Below, one piece after another: positions 1-43,580 of a stretch of DNA of 64,000 bases. The notes beneath the pieces were generated by a model. That model did no database searches. It had not been told where the DNA came from and saw only the letters and a list, made by a program, of their open reading frames with translations. This DNA comes from Escherichia coli. Its GTDB lineage: Bacteria > Pseudomonadota > Gammaproteobacteria > Enterobacterales > Enterobacteriaceae. The translations under genes were made by a program, and so were the position numbers. The stretch is from NCBI RefSeq assembly GCF_024700885.2, contig NZ_CP117016.1, one strand, 5' to 3'. How positions within the stretch are numbered: position 1 is the first letter of the stretch; the number at the start of each line of letters is the position of its first letter.

Positions 1-1076
1 GGAATATCCCGGCTCCCCAGATCATTCTCCTGTTCGTTCGGGATGTCATCCGGGAAGCCCCGCGTCTGATACCAGCGCAGGTAGACAGCAATTTTATTAC
101 GGTAATGTTCTGCCGTTCTTTCCGGCATCACATCCAGCAGGAACATCGCATAGCTGCGCCAGGTATGATGGGCCGGTTTTGATATACGTTTACGCAGGGC
201 AAAATAGGCACCGCTTTCATTGGCATAAAGCGCCCCGCTGGCAGCGCCTGACACCCGCTCACACATCCTGGCCCAGGTTTCCGGCTCCAGAACATGGTAA
301 AGCCACAGTCCCTTACGTTGTTCAGGACCAAAAGGTTCACAGACACGCATGTTGCGTAACGGTACGCCGGCACGGTACATCAGGTCATACAGGGGATTGT
401 AGATGGCACGGGTTCTGGTGTGATATATCCAGATATCACGAGTTTTCCAGTCATACAGCGGATACATGGTGTAGTAAAACCCTTCAGGCGATGCCGTGGT
501 CCAGGGCTTATCATCGGCGTATCTCAGTTTGCGCTGGGATACCAGTCCCATGAACCGGTTAAGGGACTCATCCGCACGGACACCGGTCAGTACTGCCACA
601 CCACATTTATTGTCTGCAAACCAGGAAGAAAATGCCGGAACAAATTCTTCAAACGTCATGGCATACCGGTAAAAGGGAAAATACGCCATATCTGTAATGG
701 CCCCCTCCGGTGGCTGGCGAACCCACTTCACACCAGACTCCCAGCATATCCACTCCGGCTGAAACTGAGAAACACCGTTTACCGTGGTCAGGGGAAGTGC
801 CACCCAGTAAAAGGTTTCCGTCACATCATGGTACATTTCCCGCATCTTCTGAATATGTTCAATGGTGCACTGGTACTGAGCCTCCCAGTCAATGAACAGT
901 ACAGAGAAACGACGTTTTTTCCTGCGGGCCACATCAGCCAAAAGATGGAAAAGCACGGTGGAATCTTTACCACCGGAAAAAGAGAGACAAACTGATGGAA
1001 ATGTTTCAAAAATCCACTCAATACGAGCAATTGCTGCACGCAGAACATTAGTACAAAGCCAAATTTTGTCTGTCAT
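1..1076 (-). CDS. PAPS-reductase-family PP-loop protein with DUF3440-like C-terminal region (IbrA/YbdN-like); C-terminus runs past window start
   Basis: Minus-strand frame open from ATG (complement of 1074-1076) to position 1; translation MTDKIWLCTNVLRAAIARIEWIFETFPSVCLSFSGGKDSTVLFHLLADVARRKKRRFSVLFIDWEAQ... contains the SGGKDS PP-loop. Absent from ORF track because no stop lies inside the window. Confidence 0.6.
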   Translation of the reverse strand, partial: MTDKIWLCTNVLRAAIARIEWIFETFPSVCLSFSGGKDSTVLFHLLADVARRKKRRFSVLFIDWEAQYQCTIEHIQKMREMYHDVTETFYWVALPLTTVNGVSQFQPEWICWESGVKWVRQPPEGAITDMAYFPFYRYAMTFEEFVPAFSSWFADNKCGVAVLTGVRADESLNRFMGLVSQRKLRYADDKPWTTASPEGFYYTMYPLYDWKTRDIWIYHTRTRAIYNPLYDLMYRAGVPLRNMRVCEPFGPEQRKGLWLYHVLEPETWARMCERVSGAASGALYANESGAYFALRKRISKPAHHTWRSYAMFLLDVMPERTAEHYRNKIAVYLRWYQTRGFPDDIPNEQENDLGSRDI

Positions 1077-1131
1077 TAAATGATCACGCATTACTGAACA
1101 ATATTATCTGCATCCCTTGATATAAAACAAT

Positions 1132-1962
1132 TCATAATTTTTGTATCGAGTTGGCCAACCTTTTTTCATTACCAAATCGAGTTGTGTAATATCTCTCTTC
1201 GATACCATACAGCAAAAGTTTAAGCTCTTCGTCACAAGAAATTTCGAAACAGCCAGTGCCATCATCAAACTTTAATTTTTCAGAGCAATAATCATTTATA
1301 TAAGTTAGCATATTCCCCCTGTCACTTACATCCATTTGGTTTAACGTATCCATCGCTAACGCTATTCTTTTTCTGTTTGGTTTTGAAACATTACATGCTT
1401 TATATTCACCAGAGAGAGCAATAAACGACTCCCCCAGAAACTGTTCAACATCCTGTTCTGTTGCCTCTTTATAAAGAGTATCGATACCATTAAACATGGA
1501 AGAAATGGCTGACAAGGATTTAAATATAAGCGTGTCCTTTGCAGCAAGATATACTGCATCCGGGGTCTGGTTAACAACCAGACGATTCTTCCCGCTCTCT
1601 ATCTTTGCTCTATCACCAAGTTCGATCATTTTTTTCTTGAGATATAATGATGGTGTTACCTTCTGAAAATAAAAGTCACCACTTTGAAATGAAAAAATAA
1701 ATGCTATCTTTGAAAAATATTTTTTAGGCAATTCATCATAATTTTTTGAATCAAACTCATCTTTCAAAAAGGATGGGCAGTATTCCCGTTTACTAAATTC
1801 ACTGAGACTAAACCAGGAATCTTCATCAAGATTATGATCCGGTGCATACGGAACCAATGAACACACTGACAGATCAACCCTTTCAAAAAGGGTATGATCT
1901 GAGACAATCTTAAAATATGGTTTTTTCCTGAGACCTTTTGCTTTAACAAATACATTATCCAT
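1132..1962 (-). CDS. hypothetical cytoplasmic protein, 276 aa, AT-rich gene
   Basis: ORF track 1132..1962; no TM segments; begins 3 bp after the upstream membrane-protein gene; codon usage and AT-richness differ from flanking genes. Confidence 0.5.
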   Translation of the reverse strand: MDNVFVKAKGLRKKPYFKIVSDHTLFERVDLSVCSLVPYAPDHNLDEDSWFSLSEFSKREYCPSFLKDEFDSKNYDELPKKYFSKIAFIFSFQSGDFYFQKVTPSLYLKKKMIELGDRAKIESGKNRLVVNQTPDAVYLAAKDTLIFKSLSAISSMFNGIDTLYKEATEQDVEQFLGESFIALSGEYKACNVSKPNRKRIALAMDTLNQMDVSDRGNMLTYINDYCSEKLKFDDGTGCFEISCDEELKLLLYGIEERYYTTRFGNEKRLANSIQKL

Positions 1963-1964
1963 TC

Positions 1965-2525
1965 TTATTTCCTTTCGATAAAGGTATAGTTATTAATCCT
2001 GAAAGCCATGGGCACTACAATATCTTGCGGTACTTTATACCTATAAGGACTGATAAGAAAAATCGACGCTCCTGTTTTTGTCTTAATATTATAAAACTCA
2101 TACCTGAAAACAAGAAACAAAGGATTGAAATATAAGGCCTGAGATAAAAATGTAAAAATAAACAGCACTCCATAAACAAAGAACAACGCCCCCCAGTTAT
2201 TTATACTCAGGGCAACAAAAAAGTACCCCAGATAACTCGGTAAAAAAGAGTTATTCGCATGCTCAACTGAAATCACCTCACCTTTTTTAAACTCATCTTT
2301 TCCCAGCGCAGCACTAAGCACAAGACTGACTTTAGTCAAAACAACAGGTATTAAAAAATAAAAAAGATACGACCCTACCTGAGGAATACCACTTAACCAC
2401 TGTAAACTCTGTTCATGCTGAAAAAAGTAAAACAACGTATATTTCCTTTGCACCAAAAATATAATTATCAACAAAGAAGTGGCATTGAATGTAAGCAGCA
2501 ATCTAAAAAGGATGTTAATTATCAT
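1965..2525 (-). CDS. hypothetical multi-pass membrane protein, 186 aa
   Basis: ORF track 1965..2525; several hydrophobic stretches (LLIIIFLV, LFYFLIPVVL, FFVALSINNWGALFFVYGVLFIF); AT-rich; tightly coupled to the downstream 276-aa gene. Confidence 0.5.
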   Translation of the reverse strand: MIINILFRLLLTFNATSLLIIIFLVQRKYTLFYFFQHEQSLQWLSGIPQVGSYLFYFLIPVVLTKVSLVLSAALGKDEFKKGEVISVEHANNSFLPSYLGYFFVALSINNWGALFFVYGVLFIFTFLSQALYFNPLFLVFRYEFYNIKTKTGASIFLISPYRYKVPQDIVVPMAFRINNYTFIERK

Positions 2526-2739
2526 GATATCTGGTTCCTGGACATCTAAAAATCATGCGTCATATCACACAATTTGCATTATGAATAACCATAACAATAT
2601 AACTCAGTTATTGCTACCCAAGCCCAGTATTTAAATAACTATACTATCAATGCGTAAGACCACATTAATGCTCCGCTGAAGAAGAGAAGCACTATACTCT
2701 GCAGTGCCTTTAGAAAATTATTCTCCAAAAGATGGAATA

Positions 2740-4107
2740 TCACTTCATGTCCCCTTGCGTCAAAACCCAGTAACGACTCACCAGCTCGACAAGACCATTT
2801 TCCACCTTTTTTTGCTGCTGTTCACTGCTATTCTGGTTACGAACTTCATCATAGCGACGTAACTGCTCTTCTGCCGGGATATGCCGGTTAAAAGCCTGCA
2901 TGATGCCAAACACCTCCGTTTTCAGTTCACTGACCGTCATGTATTTTCCCCGCTGCTCATCCAGACGGTTCAGGCGCTCAGCCAGCTGCTGTAAGCGGGT
3001 CATGCCTTCGTTCCAGCCCGCCATCGCCTCTTCCGGGAGCGCACGACTCCTTACACTCTTCTGCCAGTTATCCACCATTTCCTGAACACGGGGATTGTCG
3101 GGAAAAAGTACCCTCAGTTGCTGCAGCAGCTGCGCACTGCGTTGCAGGTTGTATGCCGGGGGTAGTTCTGCCAGTCGTGTTATCTGCTGACCGGAAAGGG
3201 TTATCCACTCTGACGCATGATTTAGCAGTGAAGGTGTTCTGCTGAGCTGTGTCATCTGGCCTGCTGAAAGCACATCCGGTGGTGGTGTCAGCAACGCCCT
3301 GAGTTGCTGCTCCGCCGGTGATGGCTGTGTCAGAAACTGCCATCCCGGAATGGCCACGCTGACCGCCAGCAATGCCGCACAGACACCAGTTACAAACGGT
3401 TTCAGAAACGTGGGCGGGGATTTCTGAAGGGAATGTGTGTTTTCTTTTCCGCTCTCTGCTTTTGTTTCAGAAACAACATACACCAGACGGGAGTGCGGCA
3501 GGGTCTGATGTTCCTGTACGTCCGGAGCATCAGACCGGAGTGCCTGCGCCGGAAGGGTTACCGGAGACGATACTTCACCCTGCACAGGCTGGTTCTCCAG
3601 GCGGGTGATATATCCCTTCACCATGGCTTCCGGTAAAGCCACTTTACTGCTCTGTTTAAGTTCGTGCCGGGCCAGTGTGTCACTCAGTGCCTTCAGGAAT
3701 GTTTCGGTCTGATACAGCAGGGGCAGGTTGTCACGGTCGTCCGGAGGCATGGCCCGAAGCGTTTTTTGCAGATGGTTGAACAGACCGGTAATAATTTCCA
3801 GCCGGGCGTGGGTATTCAGCGGCCACATCACTGACCAGTGATGCCGGGTCAGCGCCACAATCAGAGCCAGCCCTTCATTCAGACCACTTAACCCTGTTGT
3901 ATGCATCCGGGCGATGGTGTACCAGGATGCCGTCTGTAATTCCACGCCATTGTGTTCATACAGACGCAGGCAGAGTGTTTCCACGTAACGCCAGTCCACA
4001 TCCGGGCGTGCCGGGTGAGTCAGTTTGCTGATTTCATCGCGCAGGGCAGCATAATCCGGTAATGACCGGGGGTCACCACCGGTTTTCAGTTTCACTTCAG
4101 AAGTCAT
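2740..4107 (-). CDS. vasL: T6SS-associated ImpA_N-domain protein (VasL-like)
   Basis: N-terminus MTSEVKLKTGGDPRSLPDYAALRDEISKL... matches the ImpA N-terminal domain pattern; central hydrophobic segment (VTGVCAALLAVSVAIPGW); sits at the end of the T6SS gene string. Confidence 0.6.
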   Translation of the reverse strand: MTSEVKLKTGGDPRSLPDYAALRDEISKLTHPARPDVDWRYVETLCLRLYEHNGVELQTASWYTIARMHTTGLSGLNEGLALIVALTRHHWSVMWPLNTHARLEIITGLFNHLQKTLRAMPPDDRDNLPLLYQTETFLKALSDTLARHELKQSSKVALPEAMVKGYITRLENQPVQGEVSSPVTLPAQALRSDAPDVQEHQTLPHSRLVYVVSETKAESGKENTHSLQKSPPTFLKPFVTGVCAALLAVSVAIPGWQFLTQPSPAEQQLRALLTPPPDVLSAGQMTQLSRTPSLLNHASEWITLSGQQITRLAELPPAYNLQRSAQLLQQLRVLFPDNPRVQEMVDNWQKSVRSRALPEEAMAGWNEGMTRLQQLAERLNRLDEQRGKYMTVSELKTEVFGIMQAFNRHIPAEEQLRRYDEVRNQNSSEQQQKKVENGLVELVSRYWVLTQGDMK

Positions 4108-4161
4108 CGGCAGATTCGGTGTTGCTGTATTAAATCATGATTAACAGTGACGAAAAGAACA

Positions 4162-4470
4162 TCAGTGTGATACCGGTACCCGGGAAAGGTATTCCACCGC
4201 GCGGATAATTGCCGGTGTCACATCCCACCGCCGTTTCAGAACCGGCAACAGCTCATTAAGGTTTCTGATATAACGCTCAGTGAACAGCCGTTGTCCGTCC
4301 CTGGTTAAATGAAAACCTGACTGATTACAGGTAATGGTGATATGACAGGTATCGTTGCCAATATATACGGCTTCCTGGGGTCTGAATCTGACATTCCAGT
4401 ACCAGGAATACGGGGAATGATTAAGATGAAAAAGACGCATCTGAATGTCACTGAATAATGGATTCATCAT
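4162..4470 (-). CDS. hypothetical small protein (~102 aa)
   Basis: ORF track 4162..4572 overlaps the helicase 3' end; internal ATG pair (complement of 4465-4470, MMNPLF...) is the likely start; no clear Shine-Dalgarno. Confidence 0.3.
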   Translation of the reverse strand: MMNPLFSDIQMRLFHLNHSPYSWYWNVRFRPQEAVYIGNDTCHITITCNQSGFHLTRDGQRLFTERYIRNLNELLPVLKRRWDVTPAIIRAVEYLSRVPVSH

Positions 4471-4531
4471 AAATAAAATACACCTGATAATAAAATATAG
4501 TGGAAAACCAGAATAAAGAAATGGTCCGGTA

Positions 4532-6319
<1,788 letters not shown>

Positions 6320-6512
6320 AAACGCACCTTAATCTGTGAACAAAAAAATAATCACCACCGACATCCACGGATGTTATATCGTGGGTATCGCTTTATTCAG
6401 AAATAAAAAACAGAATCATTAACATGACCAGAATACTGTGAACCATGCTGCAGGGTATCTGCAGATATCCCTTCTGTTATATCCGGCCGGGGTAAAATCA
6501 GAACACTGACTG

Positions 6513-7757
6513 TCAGGCAGCTTCATTTTCCGCGTATTCCAGACTCTGCAGGTACTGCAGCGCCGCCGGGTCAGCCACATATTCCACCTGCCCGTGGTGA
6601 CGCTCCACTTCATTAATGATTTTCTCAAGCTTCACGCGGAAAAATTCTTTACGCAGGTTAATCCTGTTAATGCGGTATTTTTCCAGACTGTCATGAAGTG
6701 TTTTTTCCAGCGCAGGCGCATCATCACAGGAAATCATGGCGTGAACATCAAAATCAAACGGAACAGAAGCACCACTTAACTCTTTGACCCTGTCCATGGG
6801 TTCCAGCCGTCGGGTCATGCCAATTTTAAAGACATCCTCACCAAACGAACCAATATTCGAAATGATATAAACATGCCCCTGTTTCGTAAGCTGAGCCATG
6901 GATTTAGCACGTTCATACTGCGCATGCGCTTCCTGAATTTTCTGTTCCAGCTCCAGGCGTTGTTTCTCTAACTCCTCCCTGTGAGCCCCTTCTGCTGCGC
7001 GCAGCGCCTCCTCAATCAGTTTCTGCTGCTCAGCAAGACGCCGTTCTTCCTCTTCCGCTTCCCGCTGGCGCCGTTCAGGTTCATCCTGACGCTCTTTTTC
7101 TTCACGCATCTGACGCTTAAGCTCTGCCTGATATTCCTTCTCTTCCTGCGCTTTTTCCAGCAATGCCACTTTGTCCAGAAACTGTTGCCTGATACTCTCC
7201 CGGTCAGAATTATCTTCCAGGTTAAGAAAGGCTATTTTCTCACTGACAGCAGCGTAAGCCTCTCTTTCCTTACGAAGCTGGTCATATTTGCTTTGCCAGT
7301 TATTAATCGTTACACCAGCCAGCAGAGTCTTCGCCTTAAATTTCCAGGCGGAATCAACAATCCGTTGCATTGCACGGCTGGCCTTCTGTCTGGCGGTATG
7401 AAATTCCTCACGACGTCTGGCCAGTTGCTCCTTTTCCTGTCGTATTCCCCGGGCTATCGCGGCATTGACAGTTTCATTAAAACCCCGCTCTCTCTGAACC
7501 AGCTCTGAAACGGCCTGCTCAAAGGCTGCTGTTTTCTTTCTGAGTCTCCGGTAAATAAAAAAACGAAGTAAAATTGCAAATACAGTAAGCAAACCAAAAA
7601 ACAAACCAATAATACCTGCCGGATTCGATACTGCATCAATAAAGCGCTCATTAAGATTTATCAGCGCCCTGACCGCCACATAAATCCCCCAGAGAATAAC
7701 GCAAACTAAAATCAGGACAAATCCCGCTGCATTATCATCTTTTTTTCCTCCTGCCAT
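6513..7757 (-). CDS. membrane-anchored coiled-coil protein with C-terminal T5orf172/GIY-YIG-like domain (DUF4041-like architecture), 414 aa
   Basis: N-terminal TM helices (FVLILVCVILWGIYV, IIGLFFGLLTVFAILL), long Glu/Arg/Lys-rich coiled-coil region, C-terminal GHVYIISNIGSFGEDVFKIGMTRRLEPMDRVKEL module. Confidence 0.6.
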   Translation of the reverse strand: MAGGKKDDNAAGFVLILVCVILWGIYVAVRALINLNERFIDAVSNPAGIIGLFFGLLTVFAILLRFFIYRRLRKKTAAFEQAVSELVQRERGFNETVNAAIARGIRQEKEQLARRREEFHTARQKASRAMQRIVDSAWKFKAKTLLAGVTINNWQSKYDQLRKEREAYAAVSEKIAFLNLEDNSDRESIRQQFLDKVALLEKAQEEKEYQAELKRQMREEKERQDEPERRQREAEEEERRLAEQQKLIEEALRAAEGAHREELEKQRLELEQKIQEAHAQYERAKSMAQLTKQGHVYIISNIGSFGEDVFKIGMTRRLEPMDRVKELSGASVPFDFDVHAMISCDDAPALEKTLHDSLEKYRINRINLRKEFFRVKLEKIINEVERHHGQVEYVADPAALQYLQSLEYAENEAA

Positions 7758-7912
7758 GACTTTCCTTTATTTTCCTTCTCAGTAACTGAATATCTTTGAT
7801 TAACGCCCTCCGGAAATATTTATACCCGGAAGGTTGTCCGGCTTTATGATGCCAGCCACTACAGGATTAACTGCAGGCTGAGCACAGATTCCTCTGCTAT
7901 TTCAGTGTCAGA

Positions 7913-8326
7913 TTAATACTGATTACCGGAACAAATGGGCAGATGCGTAAATCCGGGTTTGCTGGCCATATAAAGCGGCGCACAGGTAGGGTTGCGGGGT
8001 TCAGTGACCGGCACAGCCTCATTTTTCTCAGCCACCGACGGTTGTGACACCTTCCGGACAGCCGCTGATTTTTCCTTCTGAACCGGCTTCGTGGTGACCG
8101 GTGATTTCACCTGACGTTTGCCGGGTGCCACGCCATAACCAGAACAAAGGCGCTTCGACTGACTCAGACTTCCGTCATTGCAGACAAAACGTCCGTCTGA
8201 CGTACAGTGTGAAATACCACCTTTAGCACCCGAGCAGGGTTTTCTTCCCCGCGCAGCATCTGCCTGAACCGAAAATAAAAGCCCCACGAACAGAAAAAAG
8301 ATAATTTTCTTCATTTTAAAACTCAT
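7913..8326 (-). CDS. hypothetical secreted Cys-containing protein with signal peptide
   Basis: MKKIIFFLFVGLLFSVQADA signal-peptide-like N-terminus (from second Met); several Cys residues; AT-rich start. Confidence 0.45.
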   Translation of the reverse strand: MSFKMKKIIFFLFVGLLFSVQADAARGRKPCSGAKGGISHCTSDGRFVCNDGSLSQSKRLCSGYGVAPGKRQVKSPVTTKPVQKEKSAAVRKVSQPSVAEKNEAVPVTEPRNPTCAPLYMASKPGFTHLPICSGNQY

Positions 8327-8470
8327 ACATTGTTATTGCTGATATGCCCGAGTTATCAGGATGATGAAACATTCAGCCAGCGTTGTCATAAGCCAGAATA
8401 ATGTCACATTCACACCTGACATATATCCATCGCTGTTTATTTATTTCTGTTCTGCCCTCCCTGCTCCGGC

Positions 8471-8905
8471 TCACGTCTGCACGTAGCGCTGCTGTTTCAG
8501 ATGGCGCAACAACACCCTGCCCTCCGGTATAAATGTTGTTCCGTAACGAACCAGCCCGGCATCTTTAAGTTCTGCATCAATGACATAATGCAACTCACCA
8601 GGCTGAGTCTGTTCCTGCATCGTCACGTCGACGCGCTTAATACGTGGCTCATACTTCAGCAGAACGTCTGAAAGCACGCGCATCAGTTGATGCGCCGTCC
8701 CCGGCATTCCCTGCAGAATGGTTGTTATATCCGGCAGACCATAATCCGGAAGATGCTTAAGGCTTCCGGCACGGGTATTCAGAATACGCTGCATGTTATC
8801 GAGCACCGAAAGAATAACCTGCTCTTCCTCACCGACCTGGTTTAACTCCAGCCCGCCAGTGAAATTGCCATAGAGAATTTCATAAAGGGAAGGACGCGGC
8901 ATCAC
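8471..8905 (-). CDS. tssE: T6SS baseplate subunit TssE (gp25-like)
   Basis: 144-aa protein MMPRPSLYEILYGNFTGG... with GPW/gp25-like pattern; abuts tssJ. Confidence 0.8.
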   Translation of the reverse strand: MMPRPSLYEILYGNFTGGLELNQVGEEEQVILSVLDNMQRILNTRAGSLKHLPDYGLPDITTILQGMPGTAHQLMRVLSDVLLKYEPRIKRVDVTMQEQTQPGELHYVIDAELKDAGLVRYGTTFIPEGRVLLRHLKQQRYVQT

Positions 8906-9441
8906 TATTTATCCTTCACCGGTAACAGGGTCAGGGTGTTACCGGATACTTCAATAAGACGGGGCGTGTCCGGCTCAAGCTCATCCCGGCCCAGCACCAC
9001 CCGCCAGGTATTTTTCTTCTGGTCAGGCTCCAGAAACATTGCTGCCACACCGGTAAATTTCGCCGCATCATCCAGAGGCATATCCACGGCTACTGAACCA
9101 CCTGGCTGCAGCCATACATCTTTCTGTGCAATGATATCGCCTGCCAGAATTTCATTGTCCCCTGTAAAAAGCGCCTGATAATCCGCACTGTCAAAACTCC
9201 GGTTGTCTTTAAGCTGATAAATCCGCACCACAACCGACAGGGGAATACCGGCAGCACTGGTGTTAATGGCCTCCCTGGCACGAATATCCAGGTGAAGTGT
9301 TTTTATCTGTCGGTAAAACAGGGATTTCGTGGCAGATACCGTACCGTCTGCCACTCTTTGCGTCAGACCGCATCCTGATAACGACAGGGAAAACAACGCA
9401 ATAATCAGACCGTAACCAGCCTTACCAGCGATAATCGCCAT
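8905..9441 (-). CDS. tssJ: T6SS outer-membrane lipoprotein TssJ
   Basis: Lipobox LSLSGCG after signal peptide; 178 aa; position between tssG and tssE. Confidence 0.8.
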   Translation of the reverse strand: MAIIAGKAGYGLIIALFSLSLSGCGLTQRVADGTVSATKSLFYRQIKTLHLDIRAREAINTSAAGIPLSVVVRIYQLKDNRSFDSADYQALFTGDNEILAGDIIAQKDVWLQPGGSVAVDMPLDDAAKFTGVAAMFLEPDQKKNTWRVVLGRDELEPDTPRLIEVSGNTLTLLPVKDK

Positions 9442-10522
9442 TTTCCTGAGTCTCCTTACGTTGATAATGTTCCTGAACCCGCTGATAACGCCCCAGACTG
9501 ATGGTCATGACGCGTGCCGCTGAAGTCGCTATCTTTGCCTGTGTTCTCATTACTGCCGTGCGCCCCAGTTGCGGACTACCGGCTGCCGGTCGGCAACTGA
9601 GCCGGGCATCCGGTAACAGTGAACGCTCAACACAAAGTTGCAGACGTACATCCAGACGGCTTCCCAGATAAACATGCAACAACGCCAACAAATCAGAATA
9701 CAGATGCCCGCCTGGTAACCAGCCCTGTACCTCGCTGCCCGTCTGTGTTGAAAGCTGTAATAACACCTGTCCGTTCACATCCGTGGCATGATCGCCCATC
9801 ACCGGGCGACTCTTCAGACTGACCGGTTGATGAACACGCATGGTCAGCGGTGTTTTCAGCGGGATCCGTCGTCGGTCATGATGCCAGACACGGGCCTGTG
9901 TTCCGGGAGCCAGCAGCGTTACCAGTGATGTCAGCCCTTCAGCTGTTCTTCCGGGTAACAACATCAGGGGCAATAACGCCAGAAAACGCGATACCGGCGT
10001 GGCAATATTCTGTGCACATCCGGGGATCCCCAGTCTGGCCAGACCGAGCAGATACTGGGATGTTTTATCCTGTCCTCCCGCCTCAAAGGTGGCCGGGTAC
10101 GAATATTTACGCCAGATACGGTAATACTGGGTGATCAGACGATGACTGAATATATCGAGAAAATCCGCTGCGGCCTCATGGCCTTCCCGCTGCTGTGCAA
10201 TATCACTGATATAGTGTGCCGGCAACGGAGACGTGACCCCGTAAAGTCCCATAAACGTCACATGTACAATGGGTGGCAGATGGGATTCTTCAGGAATTAC
10301 AGCGTCTTTTATTTCACTCGCAGGAAACCCCATTCCCGGGTATGGACAAAAGCGAACCGCTTCCTGACGGGCCTGCCAGCCACTGCCAATGGGAGGCTGG
10401 TCTGGCTGGCTTTGTTCCAGCAACTGACAGAAGCGGTAAAAATTAATATACGGAAGCTGTTTCCGGTAACGGGTAATTAACCGGGCAGGCGCGGATTGTG
10501 ATTTTCTTTCCACCGGATGCAT
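9422..10522 (-). CDS. tssG: T6SS baseplate subunit TssG
   Basis: 366-aa ORF overlapping tssF stop; typical TssG size and position directly after tssF. Confidence 0.75.
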   Translation of the reverse strand: MHPVERKSQSAPARLITRYRKQLPYINFYRFCQLLEQSQPDQPPIGSGWQARQEAVRFCPYPGMGFPASEIKDAVIPEESHLPPIVHVTFMGLYGVTSPLPAHYISDIAQQREGHEAAADFLDIFSHRLITQYYRIWRKYSYPATFEAGGQDKTSQYLLGLARLGIPGCAQNIATPVSRFLALLPLMLLPGRTAEGLTSLVTLLAPGTQARVWHHDRRRIPLKTPLTMRVHQPVSLKSRPVMGDHATDVNGQVLLQLSTQTGSEVQGWLPGGHLYSDLLALLHVYLGSRLDVRLQLCVERSLLPDARLSCRPAAGSPQLGRTAVMRTQAKIATSAARVMTISLGRYQRVQEHYQRKETQENGDYRW

Positions 10523-31068: not shown

Positions 31069-32403
31069 GTCCGCAGCACCGCAAAAAGTTCCAGTTTCAC
31101 ATCTCCCAGCGATGCCGGGGTGTAGAAAGTACAACGCCCCGCGTCCAGCATCGCCCGGGCCGCATCCGTACTTAAATCCAGCGCGAAATACTGGTTTTCC
31201 AGCCGGAGCGGAATGGCCGCCGGTACATGCGTAACCGGACGGATAATGACCCCGCTCAGCGCCACATTCACCACCTCAGACACATCATCGGGGCTCCCGG
31301 CTTTGCATAGCTGCGGAAACTTCGTCTGCAGTTCATGCCCGGGCATGGAAGAGCGCACTGAAAGCCAGAAATCAGCCCCTTCGCGCAGACGCGCATCATG
31401 TAATGCCCCCTCCCACATCACACCCTTTTGTTTCAGTTCAATGAAAACCACACGGGAAGGCAGGCTTGCCTCCAGCAGCCGGTTCAGCAAAGAAAGCAAT
31501 GGTGGGAAAACATTTTCAGGTGTTTCATGATGGTATGCCGGAACCGCATCCACATTATGCTCAAGCGAGAATGTGAGCAGGGAGCCTGCCAGCCGGGCAA
31601 GCTCCCTGTACAACAGTTCCGGGTGGCGGTAAGGCATGTCAAGCAACTCTTTCAGAACAGGCTCCGCACTGTTCAGGGCATTCAGCAACCAGAACAACGA
31701 CACGTCCGCCACAGCAAAATCCGCAAGACGGGCATTGTTCTCCCGACGCATGGACATCAGTCGCTGGCGACGCGCCTGCAGGTGATGAAGCAACTCCGCA
31801 AGTTCAGTCATCAGCGAAGGACTGGCAGACAGCGTCAGCAGAGGGGGAATAAAACGCGGGTCCCTGCACCACTGTCCCTGTGCATCACGAACAAGACGGG
31901 TAACGGGACAGGTCAGCCAGGCAGCATTTTCCTGATGAGCCATGCGCAGAGTCAGGTTATGCCGCAATACCGCCACTTCGCTTTGCTCATGCCCGGCCAG
32001 CTCCTGCACATTCACCCTTTCTGATTTCCAGCGACGCGGACGCTCGCTCTCACTGCCATTATCAATGGTTGCCACCGTTAGCATTCAGTAACGGTAGTGC
32101 CAGCACAATATCCACCAGGGAACGATCAGAAACCGTCGATAAATCACAGACCGGAGGCAGATTATCCGCGCGTTCCGTATCAATAAGCGTTCCGTCCGGG
32201 AAACGAACAATCAGACGGGTGGCATTCAACCGTGAAAGCGGTAACAGAGAGTCATCAAACTCTGCAGCCACCACGCCCCATGGATGCGCCAGCCCCATTC
32301 TGGCAACGCTGTCTGCCAGATGAACATCCCAGGCAGCCTGCTGCTGAAACTGCTGGGGCATCAGAAAAGCCCCGTCTTCCCATAGTGGGCGATAAATCTT
32401 CAT
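31065..32403 (-). pseudogene. tssK: T6SS baseplate subunit TssK, reading frame broken near 32062-32084 (frameshift)
   Basis: N-terminal 113-aa ORF (MKIYRPLWEDGAFLMPQQFQQQ..., ends 32062) and C-terminal 339-aa ORF (from 32084) are in different frames and overlap by 23 nt; together they equal a normal TssK length. Confidence 0.6.
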
Positions 32404-32418
32404 TTCCCGACACCTGCC

Positions 32419-33963
32419 TTACGCTTTTGCCTTCGGCATCTGCGAAACCAGTGACAGGCTGACGTCCATACCTTCTACCTGGAAATGCGGTACGGCGTAG
32501 AGTTTCACGCGGAAGAATCCCGGATTGTCTTCGATATCTTCCACCACCACTTTTCCGTCACGCAGCGGATGCGAGGCCTGCAGTTCATCACCCGGATCGG
32601 TCATCTCCGTCACCAGTCCCCGGATCCAGTTATTCAGCTCCAGCTCAAGCAGACGGCGATCTTTGGTGGTACCGATATTTTCCCGCTGAATGATCTTCAG
32701 GTAATGCGCAATACGGGACAGCAGGAAGATATAGGGAAGACGGGCATTAATACGACTGTTCGCCGTTGCATCCGGCGTATCGTACAGCGCCGGTTTCTGG
32801 GCGGAGTTAGCAGAGAAGAAGCAGGCATAATCCCGGTTCTTGTAGTAAGAGAGCGGAATAAAGCCCAGATTCGCGAATTCAAACTCCCGCGTTTCCGGGA
32901 TCATCACCTCTGACGGAATTTTGACCTGATTACCGGTTCCCAGATCATACAAATGGATTGGCAAATCCTGCACCGCACCACCGGCCTGAGGCCCACGGAT
33001 CTGAACACACCAGCCGTTGGTGACAAAACTGCGCACCATGTTGGCTGCAAAGGCAAAAGACGCGTTCGTCCAGAGATATTTATGGTGGTCCGGTCCTTTC
33101 ACCTCTTCAACATAGTTAAAGCTGCGGACAGGTACGGTATCCGGGCCATACGGCAGGCGTCCCAGTACACGGGGCATCACCAGGCCAATATAGCGGGCAT
33201 CGTCCGTCTCACGGAAAGCATTCCACTTGATGTACTCGGCACGCTCAAAGTGGTTGCCAATATCCTTGATGGCAGCCACCTCTTCCATGGTTTCTTTCTG
33301 GAAGAACGCCGGGCCAACTGAACCAATAAACGGCATATGTGCAGATGCCGCCACCCGGGAAATATTTTTCAGCAACGCCACGTCCTGTGCAGATGCATCA
33401 AACTCCCAGGCTGAAACCAGGGCGGCAATGGGCTCACCACCCGGCGTGTCATACTCAGCCACATAGGTCTGCAGATAAAGGCCGCTCTGAATAATTTCCG
33501 GCGCATCCTCAAAATCCTGACGCAGATCGTCTTTGGACAGATCCAGCAGCTCAATTTTCACATTACGGCGGAAGTCCGTTTTATCCACCAGGGACTTCAC
33601 GCCCCGCCACAGCGACTCCACTTTCTGAAATTCCGGATGATGAAGCACAGCATCCAGTTGACGGCTGATCTGATAATCAAGCTCTGCAATATGATGGTCA
33701 ATCAGCGCTTTATCGAGTTTTTCCACCTGCGTGCCGGCTTTTGCCAGACACTCCATAAACACCTGCATCCCTGCCGTCAGACGTTCATCTGCAGATGCTT
33801 CTGACATGGCCTGTGGATCCTGCCAGATATCCAGTGCACTCAGGGCAGATACCGGACTCAGGTTAATTTTTTCAAACAGGGAAGCATATACGCTGTCGCC
33901 GGCATGCGCTTCAGATACCACGCTCTCTGCAACGTTCTTTTCTTTCTGTACAGACATCAGCAT
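32419..33963 (-). CDS. tssC: T6SS sheath large subunit TssC (VipB)
   Basis: 514-aa ORF with typical TssC size and position after tssB. Confidence 0.85.
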   Translation of the reverse strand: MLMSVQKEKNVAESVVSEAHAGDSVYASLFEKINLSPVSALSALDIWQDPQAMSEASADERLTAGMQVFMECLAKAGTQVEKLDKALIDHHIAELDYQISRQLDAVLHHPEFQKVESLWRGVKSLVDKTDFRRNVKIELLDLSKDDLRQDFEDAPEIIQSGLYLQTYVAEYDTPGGEPIAALVSAWEFDASAQDVALLKNISRVAASAHMPFIGSVGPAFFQKETMEEVAAIKDIGNHFERAEYIKWNAFRETDDARYIGLVMPRVLGRLPYGPDTVPVRSFNYVEEVKGPDHHKYLWTNASFAFAANMVRSFVTNGWCVQIRGPQAGGAVQDLPIHLYDLGTGNQVKIPSEVMIPETREFEFANLGFIPLSYYKNRDYACFFSANSAQKPALYDTPDATANSRINARLPYIFLLSRIAHYLKIIQRENIGTTKDRRLLELELNNWIRGLVTEMTDPGDELQASHPLRDGKVVVEDIEDNPGFFRVKLYAVPHFQVEGMDVSLSLVSQMPKAKA

Positions 33964-33984
33964 TTTCTCTCGTAATCCGTTAAA

Positions 33985-34482
33985 TCACGCCTTTTCCGGC
34001 ACCAGTGCACGCAGTTCATCACGCAGCGTCTGACTCAGTGCCGGGTCACGCAGAATTTTTTCCAGCTCTTTACGGAAAGTCACGTTATCCAGCAGATTGG
34101 CTTTCAGGTCCCGCAGAAGGCTACGCATGGCCAGCATGGCTTTAAGACGGGGAATCTGTCGGGCGACCTGCTCTGGCGTGAAATCGTTCATATTGCGGAA
34201 AGTCAGGCTGATGCTCTCTTCAGAGCCATCACCGGCAAGCGTGTTCTCCACATTCAGATGTACAGACGGGGAGATATCTGCCAGAACATCATTAAAATTG
34301 TTTTTATTAATATCCGTTTTTACACGCTCTGACAGTGGACGCTCTTCCTGTCCGTTACTGAAATCACCGGCAACCAGAAGTTTGAGCGGAAGCTCCACTT
34401 TCTTCTGCCCACCACCCGTATGTAGGTCTAATTTCAGATTTACCCTTGCTTTCGGGATTTCATTCTGAAACGAACTGCTCAT
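33985..34482 (-). CDS. tssB: T6SS sheath small subunit TssB (VipA)
   Basis: From internal Met: MSSSFQNEIPKARVNLKLDLHTGGGQKKVELPLKLLVAGDF..., VipA-like; first gene of the minus-strand operon. Confidence 0.8.
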   Translation of the reverse strand: MSSSFQNEIPKARVNLKLDLHTGGGQKKVELPLKLLVAGDFSNGQEERPLSERVKTDINKNNFNDVLADISPSVHLNVENTLAGDGSEESISLTFRNMNDFTPEQVARQIPRLKAMLAMRSLLRDLKANLLDNVTFRKELEKILRDPALSQTLRDELRALVPEKA

Positions 34483-34506
34483 GGCTCTCTCCTGTGAAAC
34501 CTGCAT

Positions 34507-34988
34507 CTAAGGGGTTCCATCACCGCAGATGCCTCCCCTTGTGCACTGATTTAATTTTGATCATTATAGGACGAAGATCTGAAAAATCTCAATATGACAG
34601 ATACATCGATCGATATAACGCAAATAATCAGGACTTTATTCTATGGAATGTCGCAAAATAATGAATATTCAAAGCTTATAACCATTGTTAATGTAAAAAT
34701 ACAGAAAATTATTCCACAAAACACTTTTGATACAGCCAGTTAACATAAACACTGTATTTTCTTGATTTCAGTCATTGAAAATCACAATGAGTAAAGTTTC
34801 AGCAGCATTGACGTGATTTCTGGAAAGCGGGAAAGATATGGAGGAAGGGCCCAACAAAATGCAATGAAAGAAGGAGTGAGGGGATTTCTAGTAAAAACAG
34901 AAGATTAACAAAACACATCAGGAGGCAGAGACTCCTGATTCAGTGCTACCACATGAAAATTTAGTTAACTGTTACCGTTCTGAAATCT
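34507..34988 (-). promoter_or_regulatory. AT-rich control region upstream of tssB (T6SS promoter region), divergent from a small plus-strand ORF
   Basis: ~480 bp without ORFs, very AT-rich, directly upstream of the first T6SS gene; no specific promoter elements assigned. Confidence 0.4.
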
Positions 34989-35180
34989 ATGTCAGAAGAT
35001 ATTCCATTACCGAAAATCAATCAGCGATACAGAGACGATCATGGTGCGCTTGTCACCGTGACCAGTGTTGAGGAAACCCGGGTGGTGTTTATGCGGGACG
35101 GCTATCCGCATCCCTGCATGCGACCGATGTACAACTTCCTGGGAAAATTCAAACCCGAACCCCGGGAAGAAACAGAATAA
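34989..35180 (+). CDS. hypothetical small protein (63 aa)
   Basis: ORF track only; no recognisable motif; weak ribosome-binding site. Confidence 0.3.
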   Translation: MSEDIPLPKINQRYRDDHGALVTVTSVEETRVVFMRDGYPHPCMRPMYNFLGKFKPEPREETE

Positions 35181-35232
35181 AACGAAATCCCTGCCGGCAA
35201 TCACATTGCCTGATGGCAGCATAATCCACTTA

Positions 35233-35466
35233 TTAATTCTCATCCCCGGAGACAAGCCCTGAAAACCACTCCGGGTGTTCACTGTATGCTGTGTTCAGCG
35301 CATCCCAGGAAACGTTGATATAAAAGCTGTCCTGCAATTTCCGGGTAACCACCTCTGCCAGGCGGTTCCGGTTACCCACCAGTCCGGCATAACCTCTCTC
35401 TGCCAGCCACTCATTCAGTTCATGTTCCAGAGACAGATTGATAATATCGTAATCGGACCTTGCCAT
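35233..35466 (-). CDS. hypothetical small protein (~77 aa from internal Met MARSDYD)
   Basis: ORF track 35233..35541; likely start at internal ATG. Confidence 0.3.
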   Translation of the reverse strand: MARSDYDIINLSLEHELNEWLAERGYAGLVGNRNRLAEVVTRKLQDSFYINVSWDALNTAYSEHPEWFSGLVSGDEN

Positions 35467-35561
35467 TCCCGTTTCCTTAGCACATGTTTTCAGGCACGGG
35501 GATAAAGTATAAAGAATGTCGTACTGCTGCTGCCAGAGCAATATTCCCCCTGATGGTTGTA

Positions 35562-36221
35562 TCAGAGATGGTATGCCGGTACTTTGCGGGTTGTTCCTGT
35601 CAGGTTATCGTGCACCTCCACGGTCGTGGTCACCACCGGCATTCCGGCCTTTCTCAGCCTCAGAACATCAGCCGCAATACGCTGACTGCCAAACCAGAAC
35701 AGGCCGTCCAGTGCAGTCACCAGTAAACCCGCCTCCAGTGCATACTTCAGCCGTTCACGGGGCGCTTTCACTTCCCGGGCAACCTGCTGATATGGCAATG
35801 ATGTGTTTTCATTCCCAACCACGCGACGAATACGATGAGACAGATGATACCGGAATGTATCCGGCACACCAGAAAGGCTGGCCTTCAGGCTGTACACGCA
35901 GCCAAACCGTTTATCGTTAAACACCACATTTTTCTGGCTGATTCCCCATTCTTCACGCAGCGCAGCAATCAGTTGTGGTGTACGGGTAAGCAACAAGCGA
36001 AAAGGCAGTTCAAAACTGGTGACGTAATCCACATTCAGCAGTGCAATACGCAGCCGTTCTTCTGGCCCGGCCTCTGTCTGCCGGCACTCCTCCAGAACAT
36101 CCTGCCACTGCTGGCGAAGACGGGGCGATTCGTTCCGTTCTGTAAAACAGTATTTATCCGCCAGATAGTCAATTTGTGTACGCATACTGAAGAGCATTCC
36201 GTATAAAGATTCAGCTGACAA
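35562..36221 (-). CDS. hypothetical protein, 219 aa (prophage-like)
   Basis: ORF track; no motif recognised. Confidence 0.4.
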   Translation of the reverse strand: MSAESLYGMLFSMRTQIDYLADKYCFTERNESPRLRQQWQDVLEECRQTEAGPEERLRIALLNVDYVTSFELPFRLLLTRTPQLIAALREEWGISQKNVVFNDKRFGCVYSLKASLSGVPDTFRYHLSHRIRRVVGNENTSLPYQQVAREVKAPRERLKYALEAGLLVTALDGLFWFGSQRIAADVLRLRKAGMPVVTTTVEVHDNLTGTTRKVPAYHL

Positions 36222-40865: not shown

Positions 40866-42350
40866 TTACTTCGCTCTCAGCTTATTGTAGTGATAACCCG
40901 AGGTAAAAATACCAGAGACATCAGACAACTTTAAACTGGCTATCTGGGGAAGCAGAACATACATGGTTTTTCCTTCCGGCACGACAGAAAGCCTGAACTG
41001 AGATTCAAGAATGTTCAGCAATGCGTTCAGTTTTTTCCTGTTTCTGAACCGACCCGGGCCACACTGGAGAATATAATTTTTCCTGACACGGGGTGGGCAT
41101 TCTCCGCGGCACTCCTCAATGAGCCAGTCGAACAGCTCCTCGGCGTCCTTCTGCTGCAGTTCAGATTCATCAGGTAACGCAAATAATTTTTTATATTCAT
41201 CTGTGTACCACGAACTTATTACGACAGCAGACGTCATGATATCGGCAGAGATTTTCCCTTCACCATAGTTGAAATACTGAAATAACGCTGCAATTCTTGC
41301 AATGTTTTCTGTTTTTTTTGAAACATGTCCCCGAAACGGGCTTAAGGGTCCGGAAGGGGATAAATCCTGCTCCAGAACATTATAGTGCTCAATAAATATT
41401 TTTTGCGCTTCAGGCGAAAAATGCAGACAATACCGTTCATCCTCACTGGATTTTTCAATACTGCCTCTGGCCAGTTCCATTAATCGTTCATGAAATGCCG
41501 TTAATGATCCTCCCGGAATCACAGCTCCGTTAATAAAGCGTTTCCCCTGCGTGGTTGCAGGTTTACTGATAAGACAACGGGCAAGAAAACCACTGTCCCT
41601 GGCAACAGAACCTTTTCGCTCCATATATCGGTCAAAAAGACCGGGTTGCACCATGAGGGATAACGTCATTCTGGCATTTTCAATCATCTGTTCGGGTTCA
41701 TTCTTTCTGTCCACAGACAATACAGAGCCATCCCACATTTTGTTAATAAAAGGCAACTCAGACAGGGTATATCCATCAAATATAATACCGGCTTCATCTG
41801 ACATAATACCCACTGAACGCCATTTACCATAAAGCTGATTCTTAATTGCCGCAGTCGTGGCATCATTAAAAATGAATTTATACCTCACAGGTTCTTCCGC
41901 ACTGTTTTTCTGAAGTACTTCCAGTTGTCTGAGGGTTTCTGACTCATCCGCGCCTTTGCGGAGTTCTTTATTCAGTTTTGACAACAATGCTTTTTTCTGA
42001 GCCTTTAAAAGCTCTTCCTTGTTTTTCCAGACAGCCAGTTCACTTTTGTATCTGGAATATAACTGCATCTCCTGCTGGTACAGGGGCTTCATTAATAATT
42101 TGTCCACTGCGGTTTTTCGTTCTCCGGACTCGGCAAGCGTCAGGAAAAAAAGAGAGACCGGCCCCCGCAGTGTATTCAGTCTGCAGACATCAATCAGATT
42201 CTGGCAGACAAGTGAAACAGCGCCCAGGGCAGACGCTGCCACAAGCCCAAGGGGAGCCTGCGTAATTTGCTGAGCTTCAATAACGGCATCACGAATGAGT
42301 GGAGGCAGCGAACTCAGGGGAAACTCATCACAAGGCTGACCGAATGACAT
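40866..42350 (-). CDS. hypothetical prophage protein, possibly DUF3987 (YfjI-like)
   Basis: ORF track 40866..42419; likely start MSFGQPCDEF; family assignment from memory only. Confidence 0.4.
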   Translation of the reverse strand: MSFGQPCDEFPLSSLPPLIRDAVIEAQQITQAPLGLVAASALGAVSLVCQNLIDVCRLNTLRGPVSLFFLTLAESGERKTAVDKLLMKPLYQQEMQLYSRYKSELAVWKNKEELLKAQKKALLSKLNKELRKGADESETLRQLEVLQKNSAEEPVRYKFIFNDATTAAIKNQLYGKWRSVGIMSDEAGIIFDGYTLSELPFINKMWDGSVLSVDRKNEPEQMIENARMTLSLMVQPGLFDRYMERKGSVARDSGFLARCLISKPATTQGKRFINGAVIPGGSLTAFHERLMELARGSIEKSSEDERYCLHFSPEAQKIFIEHYNVLEQDLSPSGPLSPFRGHVSKKTENIARIAALFQYFNYGEGKISADIMTSAVVISSWYTDEYKKLFALPDESELQQKDAEELFDWLIEECRGECPPRVRKNYILQCGPGRFRNRKKLNALLNILESQFRLSVVPEGKTMYVLLPQIASLKLSDVSGIFTSGYHYNKLRAK

Positions 42351-43580
42351 AGTAACCTCACTACACACAGATATAAAAGCACTGCAATTCTGGCTATTAA
42401 TAGCAAAAATAGCAGTCAAATCAATATGAGGTAAAAATTTTTGTTGATTTAATGGTTAAATAATAACCACAGTGTGTTTTGCTGCTGAAGAAAGACAAAA
42501 TGAATCTGTGTGTCCCCTCCTTCCCTTCAGAGCACATCCACTATTCAAATTTTACACAACCACGTACGAACAAAAAGCATCATCCCGGGTATTGCAGATA
42601 CCGGTTTCCTGCCGGGATGAATCATAAACAGAACACCGGGAATAACGCCTTCAGGAATCCCCCCCCTCCTGAAGAAGAATAAAATAAAGAAGACTACATT
42701 TCCTGCACTGTATGCTGAGTACAATATTCTATGGACAGGATGACATATTTATAAATAACAAAAACCATTTAATACTGATACATCAATAAAATACTTCCTC
42801 CCTGCTGACGCAGATAAAATGCACCATTTTTTCTTCAAATACTTCTGTATAATCGCCAGCCAATGATGAGAATGGATTAAAATAACACTTCTTCGACAAA
42901 CACAAAAACAGCCTTCATTTTACATCATCATCCAGTTTCAGTTAACCCCGGACGAGCAACAGCGTTTCAGTACAGGAATTAAAAGCCAGCTTTTGCTCAG
43001 TAAAAACACACTCAACTAATAATATCTCAGCAGATATTATCCTGACCAGGACACCTCACATTACTGAATTCTCTTCCGACAGTATCACTGCACAAATAAA
43101 AAAGAACGGGATAAATATTCAGACCGGAAGAATGGTGTCACAAAAGCATTTAATCATTACGCATGACCAGGAAGGGAAACACTTAACCACATGGTATCAA
43201 CAGATATCATTACGTGTGCACTCTTATAAAAAACACACAGAAGAAGTAAGATAATTATAAATGTAAATTTAATATCTCCCACTGACATCTCCCCCACAAT
43301 ACACTGAAAAATACTCACAGCAGTAAACACAGACACACCTGATAATCATGCAGCCGATAAATATTTTCCCCTTTACGGAGAAATCAGCCTGCTGTTTAAC
43401 AATAACGGCGTATTTTCATGGAAGGAGATCACCCAGTAACGGATAAGTCCTGATCTCCTTCATGTTAATACGCAACAATCCCATCGATTAAAAACAATTT
43501 CAGACAGATATTATCTCCGTGAATCCCCCGCCACCTTTCCGGTGCGCGGGATTTTGTCTTTTTTCACCGGGAATACATGT

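Follow-up and report, generated by a model that had tools for sequence, protein, structure and literature searches.

The stretch of Escherichia coli DNA analysed here (contig NZ_CP117016.1 of assembly GCF_024700885.2; 64 000 nucleotides, hereafter the window) carries at positions 1-34506 what its sequence identifies as the Sci-1 (T6SS-1) type VI secretion system (T6SS) cluster of enteroaggregative E. coli (EAEC), part of a pheU-type island. Positions 1-20000 match E. coli MLI114 at 100% identity and two enteroaggregative strains, 042 and 55989, at 99.8-99.9%, and over these 20 kb the sole structural difference from 042 in that match is the number of tli1 copies (one in the window, two in 042). 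Four AT-rich islets (1132-2525, 4162-8326, 12248-12940 and 17922-21751; islets 1 to 4 respectively) interrupt the GC-rich core genes, and the resulting mosaic in guanine + cytosine (GC) content is real, graded and of mixed kind.

Every gene in 1-34506 lies on the minus strand. According to Pfam and the RefSeq annotation of MLI114, the gene order is tssB, tssC, tssK, tssL, tagL (OmpA), hcp, clpV, orf188 and a DUF7480 lipoprotein gene, followed by vgrG, tle1, tli1, PAAR, orf382, tssM, tssA, orf230, tssF, tssG, tssJ and tssE, and then by orf133, a T5orf172 protein gene, a NERD-UvrD helicase gene, orf101, tagA, two unnamed genes (islet 1) and ibrA. The full T6SS core set was recognized by Pfam (tssA, B, C, E, F, G, J, K, L and M, hcp, vgrG, clpV and PAAR; E-values of 1e-16 to 1e-167), with tssK split. 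The block from clpV through hcp, tagL, tssL, tssK and tssC to tssB occupies 25359-34506 (GC 0.50-0.58; Pfam), while tssM (14540-17929) and tssA (12942-14540) show a GC of 0.55-0.56 (Pfam IcmF-related/IcmF_helical/IcmF_C and T6SS_VasJ/ImpA_N respectively), and tssF (10477-12240), tssG (9422-10522), tssJ (8905-9441) and tssE (8471-8905) one of 0.51-0.54 (Pfam T6SS_TssF, T6SS_TssG, T6SS-SciN and GPW_gp25 respectively).

GC mosaic and variable slots

As reference we used 15 T6SS core genes (21.8 kb) cut into 65 tiles of 300 bp, with a pooled GC of 0.544, a tile mean of 0.546 (sd 0.035, minimum 0.447) and a GC at third codon positions (GC3) of 0.52-0.63. When islet tiles were set against core tiles (one-sided Mann-Whitney test), the difference was significant for all four islets, whose limits coincide exactly with the boundaries of open reading frames (ORFs). 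Three of them lie below every core tile, as expected from a sequence-only reading of this DNA that had called all four distinctly AT-richer than the core: islet 1 (GC 0.346, i.e. -0.198; p=4e-4; GC3 0.31-0.37), islet 3 (0.374, -0.170; p=9e-3; GC3 0.42) and islet 4 (0.431, -0.113; p=5e-8; GC3 0.36-0.43). 'Distinctly' is too strong for the heterogeneous islet 2, which is lower (0.487, -0.057; p=4e-6; GC3 0.45-0.54) but weakly so; its biggest gene, NERD-UvrD, has a GC of 0.515 and a GC3 of 0.544, within the core range, and core genes of comparable GC include tssE (0.515), tssJ (0.510), hcp (0.510) and tssB (0.498). The GC-normalised dinucleotide signature of islet 1, islet 2 and tli1+tle1 differed from all equal-length core chunks (0/300), and those of orf382+PAAR (0.52) and of the short orf230 (0.90) were not distinguishable from core chunks. 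Two further stretches of lower GC had been overlooked, the clpV|vgrG slot at 24260-25371 (0.493) and the 3' end of vgrG at 21748-22513 (0.469).

Synteny was compared across 80 related Enterobacterales loci and other E. coli strains. The slots proved to be empty or to hold unrelated genes, and the occupants were always AT-richer than the neighbouring core. Slot counts are given by denominators of 57 loci for tssE|tagA, 64 for tssA|tssF, 60 for orf382 and 61 for PAAR; in other genera tagA is the end of the locus, and the flanks there are not comparable with the tagA|ibrA slot of E. coli.

Predicted anti-phage genes in islets 1 and 2

Islet 1 consists of two genes separated by 2 bp. The upstream one (1965-2525) encodes a KwaA-like membrane protein of 186 amino acids with about four hydrophobic helices (GC 0.339; PADLOC KwaA, E 3e-10), and the second (1132-1962) a KwaB-like protein of 276 amino acids (GC 0.351; PADLOC KwaB, E 2.4e-12, nearly full length). 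An AlphaFold model of the KwaB-like protein, made with 30 homologues (predicted local distance difference test, pLDDT, 77), was searched with Foldseek, and the sole matches in the PDB at E<=1e-3 were the KwaB structures 9mtn, 9mrx and 9nyu (E ~1e-5, probability 1.00). A search of PDB sequences with the same protein returned nothing relevant, the relation being visible at the level of the fold alone. The KwaB-like family is large (at least 1531 homologues with 55-67% identity, from Vibrio to Verrucomicrobia), the subfamily being mislabelled at NCBI as 'ATP F0F1 synthase synthase', and in Proteus the same pair of genes (185 and 277 amino acids) lies beside a type I restriction-modification system and an integrase. 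Among complete E. coli genomes the module was found in 26 of 5426. We read 1132-2525 as a divergent Kiwa-like two-gene module, a candidate anti-phage defence system outside the T6SS operon.

Alignments with other E. coli strains place the swap borders of the tagA|ibrA slot at 1050 and 2760, and the flank on the ibrA side is 94.8-96.5% identical in strains in which the slot has other contents. These are an OLD-family nuclease with a small gene (some strains), a different OLD-like ATPase (one strain) or the small gene only (one strain); the alternative occupants match PADLOC 'Old' at 1e-67 and 6e-59. Judged by its predicted contents, the slot is a hotspot for defence genes bordering the T6SS cluster and not a site of T6SS cargo. 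A 19-nt direct repeat (CCAAAAGATGGAA; 17/19 identical) at 938-956 and 2725-2743 brackets the Kiwa-like islet just beyond the swap borders and could be due to chance or be a recombination scar.

On one side of the islet lies the 5' part of an ibrA-like gene (PAPS-reductase/DUF3440; 1-1091, cut by the window edge; Pfam DUF3440 and PAPS_reduct), as named in MLI114 by the Prokaryotic Genome Annotation Pipeline (PGAP). On the other lies tagA (2740-4107), the final T6SS gene of the operon and an intact ORF of 455 amino acids (ImpA_N + VasL; Pfam VasL 1e-37, ImpA_N 2.4e-17). In MLI114, 042 and other strains PGAP splits tagA into three pseudo-fragments, one of them labelled ShlB/FhaC or POTRA, which is probably an annotation artefact.

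Islet 2, between tssE and tagA, contains four genes. The first in reading direction, orf133/137 (7913-8326), encodes a small, secreted, Cys-rich protein with a signal peptide that accompanies the PD-Lambda-1-type gene; it has a precomputed Pfam label (YdcA), and its only family signal in our searches was a below-cutoff match of the first ~60 residues to NCBIfam PRK10040. The PD-Lambda-1-type protein (6513-7757; GC 0.476) combines two N-terminal transmembrane (TM) helices, a coiled coil and a C-terminal T5orf172/GIY-YIG-like domain, and matches PADLOC PDLC03976 at 5e-88 (residues 201-412) and PDLC03977 at 5e-82, together with Pfam T5orf172 (1e-16) and MUG113 (1e-18). It is followed by a candidate anti-phage protein (4532-6319; GC 0.515) composed of a NERD nuclease and a UvrD-like superfamily 1 helicase (Pfam NERD, UvrD-helicase and UvrD_C), which matches the PADLOC model PDLC01087 'NERD+UvrD' over residues 1-594 of 595 (E 1e-139), and by orf101 (4162-4467), a small gene accompanying NERD-UvrD without a family match in Pfam, PADLOC or NCBIfam. 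The islet is thus predicted to hold candidate defence genes within the T6SS transcription unit rather than T6SS cargo.

The tssE|tagA interval measures <=110 bp in 32/57 related loci. In 17/57 (Enterobacter, Pantoea, Buttiauxella, Rahnella and others) it houses a family of ~156 amino acids without a Pfam match, which is absent from the E. coli locus. Three loci (Pluralibacter, Salmonella arizonae and Tenebrionibacter) carry orf133 with PD-Lambda-1, the homologues being 63-65% identical for orf133, which adjoins PD-Lambda-1 in all three genera, and 78-79% for PD-Lambda-1 itself; a single locus (Cedecea neteri) carries NERD-UvrD, with 66% identity, and decayed remnants of PD-Lambda-1 or NERD-UvrD occur at this position in two more (Rosenbergiella and Cedecea colo). 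Comparison of Pluralibacter with S. arizonae gives a DNA identity of 85.1% for the islet region and of 85.7-86.1% for the core. The PD-Lambda-1 unit has thus diverged among genera at the pace of the core, which makes it an old resident moving along with the locus and not a recent addition. Islet 2 is made up of two separately acquired units, orf133 with PD-Lambda-1 and NERD-UvrD with orf101, the latter pair being kept together in strains without a T6SS core.

NERD-UvrD/orf101 was matched in ~1000 complete E. coli genomes and the tssF-tssA core in only 67. A preliminary set of 2486 genomes matching positions 1-20000 was rejected as a count of T6SS carriers, since 67 match the tssF-tssA core and the rest are remnants with NERD-UvrD, tagA or ibrA. 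Two contexts were examined (loci L085 and L086; window 2782-6410 and 34546-35992). In strain Survcare045 the interval corresponding to window 6411-34545, i.e. the whole T6SS core, is swapped for an insertion sequence (IS) remnant, with NERD-UvrD, tagA fragments and ibrAB kept, and in strain UTME-14 a contact-dependent inhibition (CDI)/hemagglutinin locus abuts islet 2.

A pattern search located the motif GGTAGCTT at 6250-6257 on the coding (minus) strand, at the boundary of PD-Lambda-1 and NERD-UvrD, and this motif is likely the RfaH ops2 element. According to a preprint (10.1101/2025.02.08.637259), ops2 lies between EC042_4547 and EC042_4548, and transcription across EC042_4548/4549 depends on RfaH and ops; if the tags are counted on from PAAR (EC042_4537), EC042_4547 and EC042_4548 should correspond to PD-Lambda-1 and NERD-UvrD. 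Since ops2 and RfaH-dependent transcription map there, PD-Lambda-1 and NERD-UvrD, which precede tagA, appear to be transcribed with the T6SS operon. A broader idea, that intra-operon slots dock anti-phage genes as well as toxins and that attack and phage defence are coupled in one RfaH/ops regulon, is speculative and in our view rather doubtful. If true, tagA would be expressed only via read-through of PD-Lambda-1 and NERD-UvrD, and selection would retain the defence part after loss of the weapon, as in the ~1000 genomes with NERD-UvrD, tagA fragments and ibrAB and no T6SS core.

Islets 3 and 4: a membrane cassette, T6SS cargo and conserved AT-rich genes

Islet 3 is a single gene, orf230 (12248-12940; GC 0.374), which fills the space between tssA and tssF without any intergenic gap and encodes a membrane protein with about four hydrophobic helices. 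It has no family match in Pfam, NCBIfam or PADLOC, and its homologues in 5.8 billion proteins are confined to five E. coli clusters (70-100% identity); a 34% relative occupies the same slot in Cedecea neteri. The gene is intact in 41/67 E. coli loci and carries a 552-bp deletion in the other 26/67, and in CP057784 it is only 67-85% identical between flanks of 97-100% identity. Of the 64 related loci, 50 have tssA and tssF no more than 110 bp apart, mostly 10-26 bp. The occupied gaps, eleven in number and 150-2600 bp long, have a mean GC 0.19 below their own core and hold at least five unrelated gene sets, among them a 244-amino-acid lipoprotein family, DUF805 membrane proteins, a TM2 protein and another lipoprotein; in Buttiauxella brennerae (L014) the slot contains homologues of the window's orf188 (65%) and DUF7480 lipoprotein (40%). 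Islet 3 is thus best described as a hypervariable cassette, predicted to encode a membrane protein, in a recurrent slot that is usually empty. Its membrane topology and hypervariability, and what else occupies the slot, make orf230 a plausible orphan immunity-like protein; no homologue adjoins an effector, those of the five E. coli clusters and the one of Cedecea all lying in the tssA|tssF slot.

Islet 4 contains two kinds of genes. The first is tle1 (20069-21751), a phospholipase A1 effector gene situated directly downstream of vgrG (Pfam T6SS_Tle1-like_cat, 2.6e-16), with tli1 (19372-20049), which encodes a lipoprotein immunity protein (DUF2931 with a lipobox); their GC is 0.43. PGAP names them Tle1-EAEC and Tli1-EAEC, and the accession of tle1, WP_000170556.1, is the same as in 042. 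T6SS-dependent delivery of Tle1 and protection by its immunity protein were reportedly demonstrated by Flaugnatti et al. in 2016, in experiments on the identical proteins of 042/17-2. The pair is the known Tle1-Tli1 effector-immunity pair and true T6SS cargo. A tandem tli1 pair, with an extra ~820 bp, is present in EAEC 042 (L002 33872-35370) and in most related strains, the window having a single copy at 19372-20049.

The spike gene vgrG (21748-24273; Pfam Phage_GPD, T6SS_Vgr and DUF2345) ends in a 3' part of 766 bp with the low GC given above, and on its other side the clpV|vgrG slot (24260-25371) is occupied by orf188 and its lipoprotein partner. The former has an HExxH motif (HEMAH) at residue 94 and no family match in Pfam, NCBIfam or PADLOC; the latter matches Pfam DUF7480 and NCBIfam NF045617, 'putative T6SS immunity periplasmic lipoprotein'. 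Together, a zinc-peptidase-like motif beside such a lipoprotein looks like a second, putative effector/immunity pair. In E. coli PapRG-04-4 the segment 19331-25386 is replaced between flanks that are both 96-98% identical: a Lipase_3 effector and an unnamed gene stand in place of tle1-tli1, vgrG is 77.6% identical over 22514-24205 with an unalignable 3' end, and the orf188/DUF7480 pair is also replaced. The exchange unit (~6 kb) is thus vgrG with its cargo plus orf188/DUF7480 and not tle1-tli1 alone, and its breakpoints are not at the tle1 junctions.

The second kind comprises PAAR (19074-19340; GC 0.412; Pfam PAAR_motif 8e-24), the spike tip (EC042_4537), and orf382 (17922-19070; GC 0.450), which encodes an accessory protein with N-terminal TM helices and a thiolase/ketosynthase-like, Tla3-like fold. 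The term 'non-core', applied to the whole islet in the sequence-only reading, fails for PAAR, an essential component in EAEC (PMC10715212). PAAR is 39-85% identical across the 61 related loci, and an intact ORF of 369-465 amino acids stands at the position of orf382, between PAAR and tssM, in 60/60, although its sequence evolves rapidly (13-53% identity). In every related locus both are lower in GC than the local core, by an average of 0.113 for PAAR and 0.106 for orf382, and compared with PapRG-04-4 both stay with the tssM block (98% identity). Because this position is conserved in ~60 loci and the dinucleotide signature is core-like, AT-richness does not equal insertion in this case; the two genes are not an insertion, and their low GC is a lineage-wide trait of conserved machine and accessory genes. 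The AlphaFold model of orf382 (pLDDT 90) matched ketosynthases and the Pseudomonas aeruginosa T6SS lipase adaptor Tla3 (8yz3; E 2e-8) in Foldseek. The protein itself has no Pfam, NCBIfam or PADLOC match, and a single weak match to Tla3_C among 47 homologues was a lead only, later backed by the fold search. Because the catalytic Cys is not conserved, orf382 looks, on the modelled fold, like a pseudo-enzyme serving as accessory or adaptor.

Further along the locus, an RfaH ops1 element (GGCGGTAGCGTG), an exact match to the ops consensus, lies at 28048-28059 between hcp and clpV. The tssK gene (31065-32403) has one extra base at ~32067 relative to EAEC 042, with 1 other substitution in 1338 bp, and is divided into two ORFs; in the PGAP annotation of MLI114, whose sequence is identical, it is treated as a pseudogene with a frameshift. 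Because of this 1-bp insertion the T6SS of the strain is probably inactive, unless the extra base is an assembly error. A tRNA scan of the window found no tRNA gene, so the tRNA anchor of the island lies outside it. Beyond the T6SS cluster more AT-rich dips (GC 0.36-0.43) occur at 34000-35500, 41000-43500 and 61000-63000, in an island region with Ag43, a CbtA toxin-antitoxin, IS elements and CP4-like genes, which the kps capsule genes adjoin.

Origin of the mosaic

The explanation that we favour, with fairly high confidence, is a conserved GC-rich scaffold with a few fixed slots whose contents have histories of their own and are exchanged by recombination in the flanks, the four islets being four different things. 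The slots interrupting the structural scaffold would tolerate extra genes, and their contents would, as the simplest mechanism, be replaced by homologous recombination in the conserved flanking genes, presumably with no mobile-element integrase behind the exchanges. Homology between alleles ends at the islet borders, no recombinase gene lies in any of the four islets, and a search for repeats at the islet borders gave no convincing target-site duplication or terminal inverted repeats and only weak short repeats, the best being the 19-nt repeat around islet 1. The parts of the mosaic are not all of one age: PAAR and orf382 are ancestral and PD-Lambda-1 is old, and the alternation of the Kiwa-like module with OLD, that of Tle1 with Lipase_3, the different alleles of orf230 and the number of tli1 copies are recent and polymorphic in E. 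coli.

Several points weigh against this explanation. The related loci examined were the best 80 of 389, and loci under ~85% identity escape the megablast counts in E. coli. The KwaB-like protein shares only ~10% identity with solved KwaB (TM-scores 0.37-0.41), and Pfam DUF4868 does not match it even at E<=1. In islet 2 the PADLOC NERD+UvrD model describes a candidate family and not a validated system, and the PD-Lambda-1 match is confined to the C-terminal half (residues 125-412 at best), with the N-terminal TM region outside it. The role of orf230 is one that we infer purely from slot content and variability. Finally, PAAR and orf382 are AT-rich in hosts with a core GC anywhere from 0.38 to 0.64, for which no explanation was found.

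The sequence-only reading had taken all four islets for T6SS cargo, each inserted separately at an operon junction, which we now consider improbable. It is right that Tle1-Tli1 is real cargo, that the tssA|tssF slot is occupied by an effector/immunity pair in Buttiauxella and by lipoproteins in other loci, and that slots are empty in many relatives; tle1-tli1 is, however, the only demonstrable T6SS cargo, and the families matched by islet 1 and by most of islet 2 are those of anti-phage defence, not of T6SS effectors. Repeated rather than single acquisition, its second proposal, is borne out by at least four separately variable slots but does not apply to orf382 and PAAR, which all related loci conserve. 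Nor do the exchanges look like insertions at junctions: they resemble whole-block replacement, one block running from the end of clpV to the start of PAAR with vgrG included, and the breakpoints of this vgrG-linked unit fall inside or beyond genes.

Arrival in E. coli of an already mosaic locus in a single acquisition, with no later insertion, would account for the co-divergence of the PD-Lambda-1 islet with the core across genera, for the ancestral state of orf382 and PAAR, and for the GC of islet 2, which would be expected to approach the E. coli average in a long-standing resident, and does. We give it little credence for the locus as a whole. E. coli loci with 96-98% identical cores differ in the tagA|ibrA slot (Kiwa-like genes, one or other of two different OLD-like genes, or neither), the vgrG-effector block is swapped among them, orf230 is intact, deleted or represented by a 67-85% allele, and tli1 is single or duplicated; this polymorphism among close loci limits a single acquisition to, at most, islet 2 and PAAR/orf382. 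That AT-richness stems from protein composition (Phe, Ile, Lys and Asn codons in membrane protein and lipoprotein genes) or from weak codon selection in genes of low expression and not from foreign origin is hardly credible as a general account, since GC3, largely independent of amino acids, is low in islets 1, 3 and 4 (0.31-0.43 versus 0.52-0.63 in the core) and presence/absence and replacement polymorphism are direct evidence of separate histories, although several islet proteins are membrane proteins or lipoproteins and an intrinsic cause is the better one for PAAR and orf382, AT-rich in every lineage and with the dinucleotide signature of the core.

Low-GC exchangeable T6SS modules and variable defence hotspots are already established, and with a conserved scaffold and exchangeable slots the locus is an ordinary instance of both, which changes no general concept. 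The new points are modest: two islets are predicted anti-phage modules, of which one sits within the T6SS transcription unit, and for PAAR/orf382 AT-rich does not mean inserted. In the literature that we could search, the 'accessory' genes of Sci-1 are nowhere described as defence genes (the ops/RfaH preprint terms them accessory), and EC042_4546-4549 and the two genes after tagA have no functional label. What results is a map of machine, cargo and passengers for the best-studied E. coli T6SS cluster, with several leads: EC042_4546-4549 (presumed tags) resemble anti-phage defence genes, as do the two that follow tagA; EC042_4541 (presumed tag) is a hypervariable membrane cassette, and EC042_4538 (presumed tag) encodes a universally conserved protein whose modelled thiolase fold is Tla3-like. 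For genome scanning, low GC in an operon flags separately evolving genes and proves neither insertion nor the type of cargo.

Comparison with known systems

Among the closest known systems is the Sci-1 cluster of EAEC 042/17-2 (EC042_4524-4550, Cascales laboratory), which is the same locus, with 99.8% identity, the same gene order, Tle1, Tli1, PAAR, TagA and ops1; the window differs from that of 042 by its single tli1 (two in 042) and its frameshifted tssK.

With Kiwa, a membrane supercomplex of a KwaA tetramer and a KwaB dimer (PMC11785009; PDB 9mrx, 9mtn and 9nyu), islet 1 shares a small multi-pass membrane gene followed by a soluble gene of ~280-310 amino acids, matches to the KwaA and KwaB hidden Markov models, KwaB structures as the only significant PDB matches of the modelled fold, and a defence-island setting in other genera. 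Unlike Kiwa, the pair belongs to a separate and very widespread subfamily that escapes the DUF4868 model, its likeness being predicted from sequence and model. Defence hotspots between conserved flanks have been described in the E. coli pan-genome (PMC10121019) and in the P. aeruginosa core genome (PMC10250203), and the tagA|ibrA site likewise holds alternative defence systems. In contrast to those hotspots, its flanks are a T6SS gene and ibrAB in a pathogenicity island and not core chromosome or prophage/satellite genes, and the T6SS transcription unit itself encloses a second islet of predicted defence genes; we found no mention of secretion systems in PMC10121019.

For the T6SS of Vibrio cholerae, a review drawing on Unterweger 2014 and Kirchberger 2017 (PMC6730261) describes highly conserved structural genes, vgrG-linked effector/immunity modules of 6-13% lower GC that are swapped between strains, and orphan immunity genes kept inside the clusters; the review adds that no such study for E. 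coli existed. The Tle1-Tli1 module of the window, with an 11% lower GC and a Lipase_3 module in its place elsewhere, is like those modules. It differs from them in organism and T6SS subtype and in that vgrG and the upstream pair move with the module, and two of the four AT-rich islets at this locus are not effector modules.

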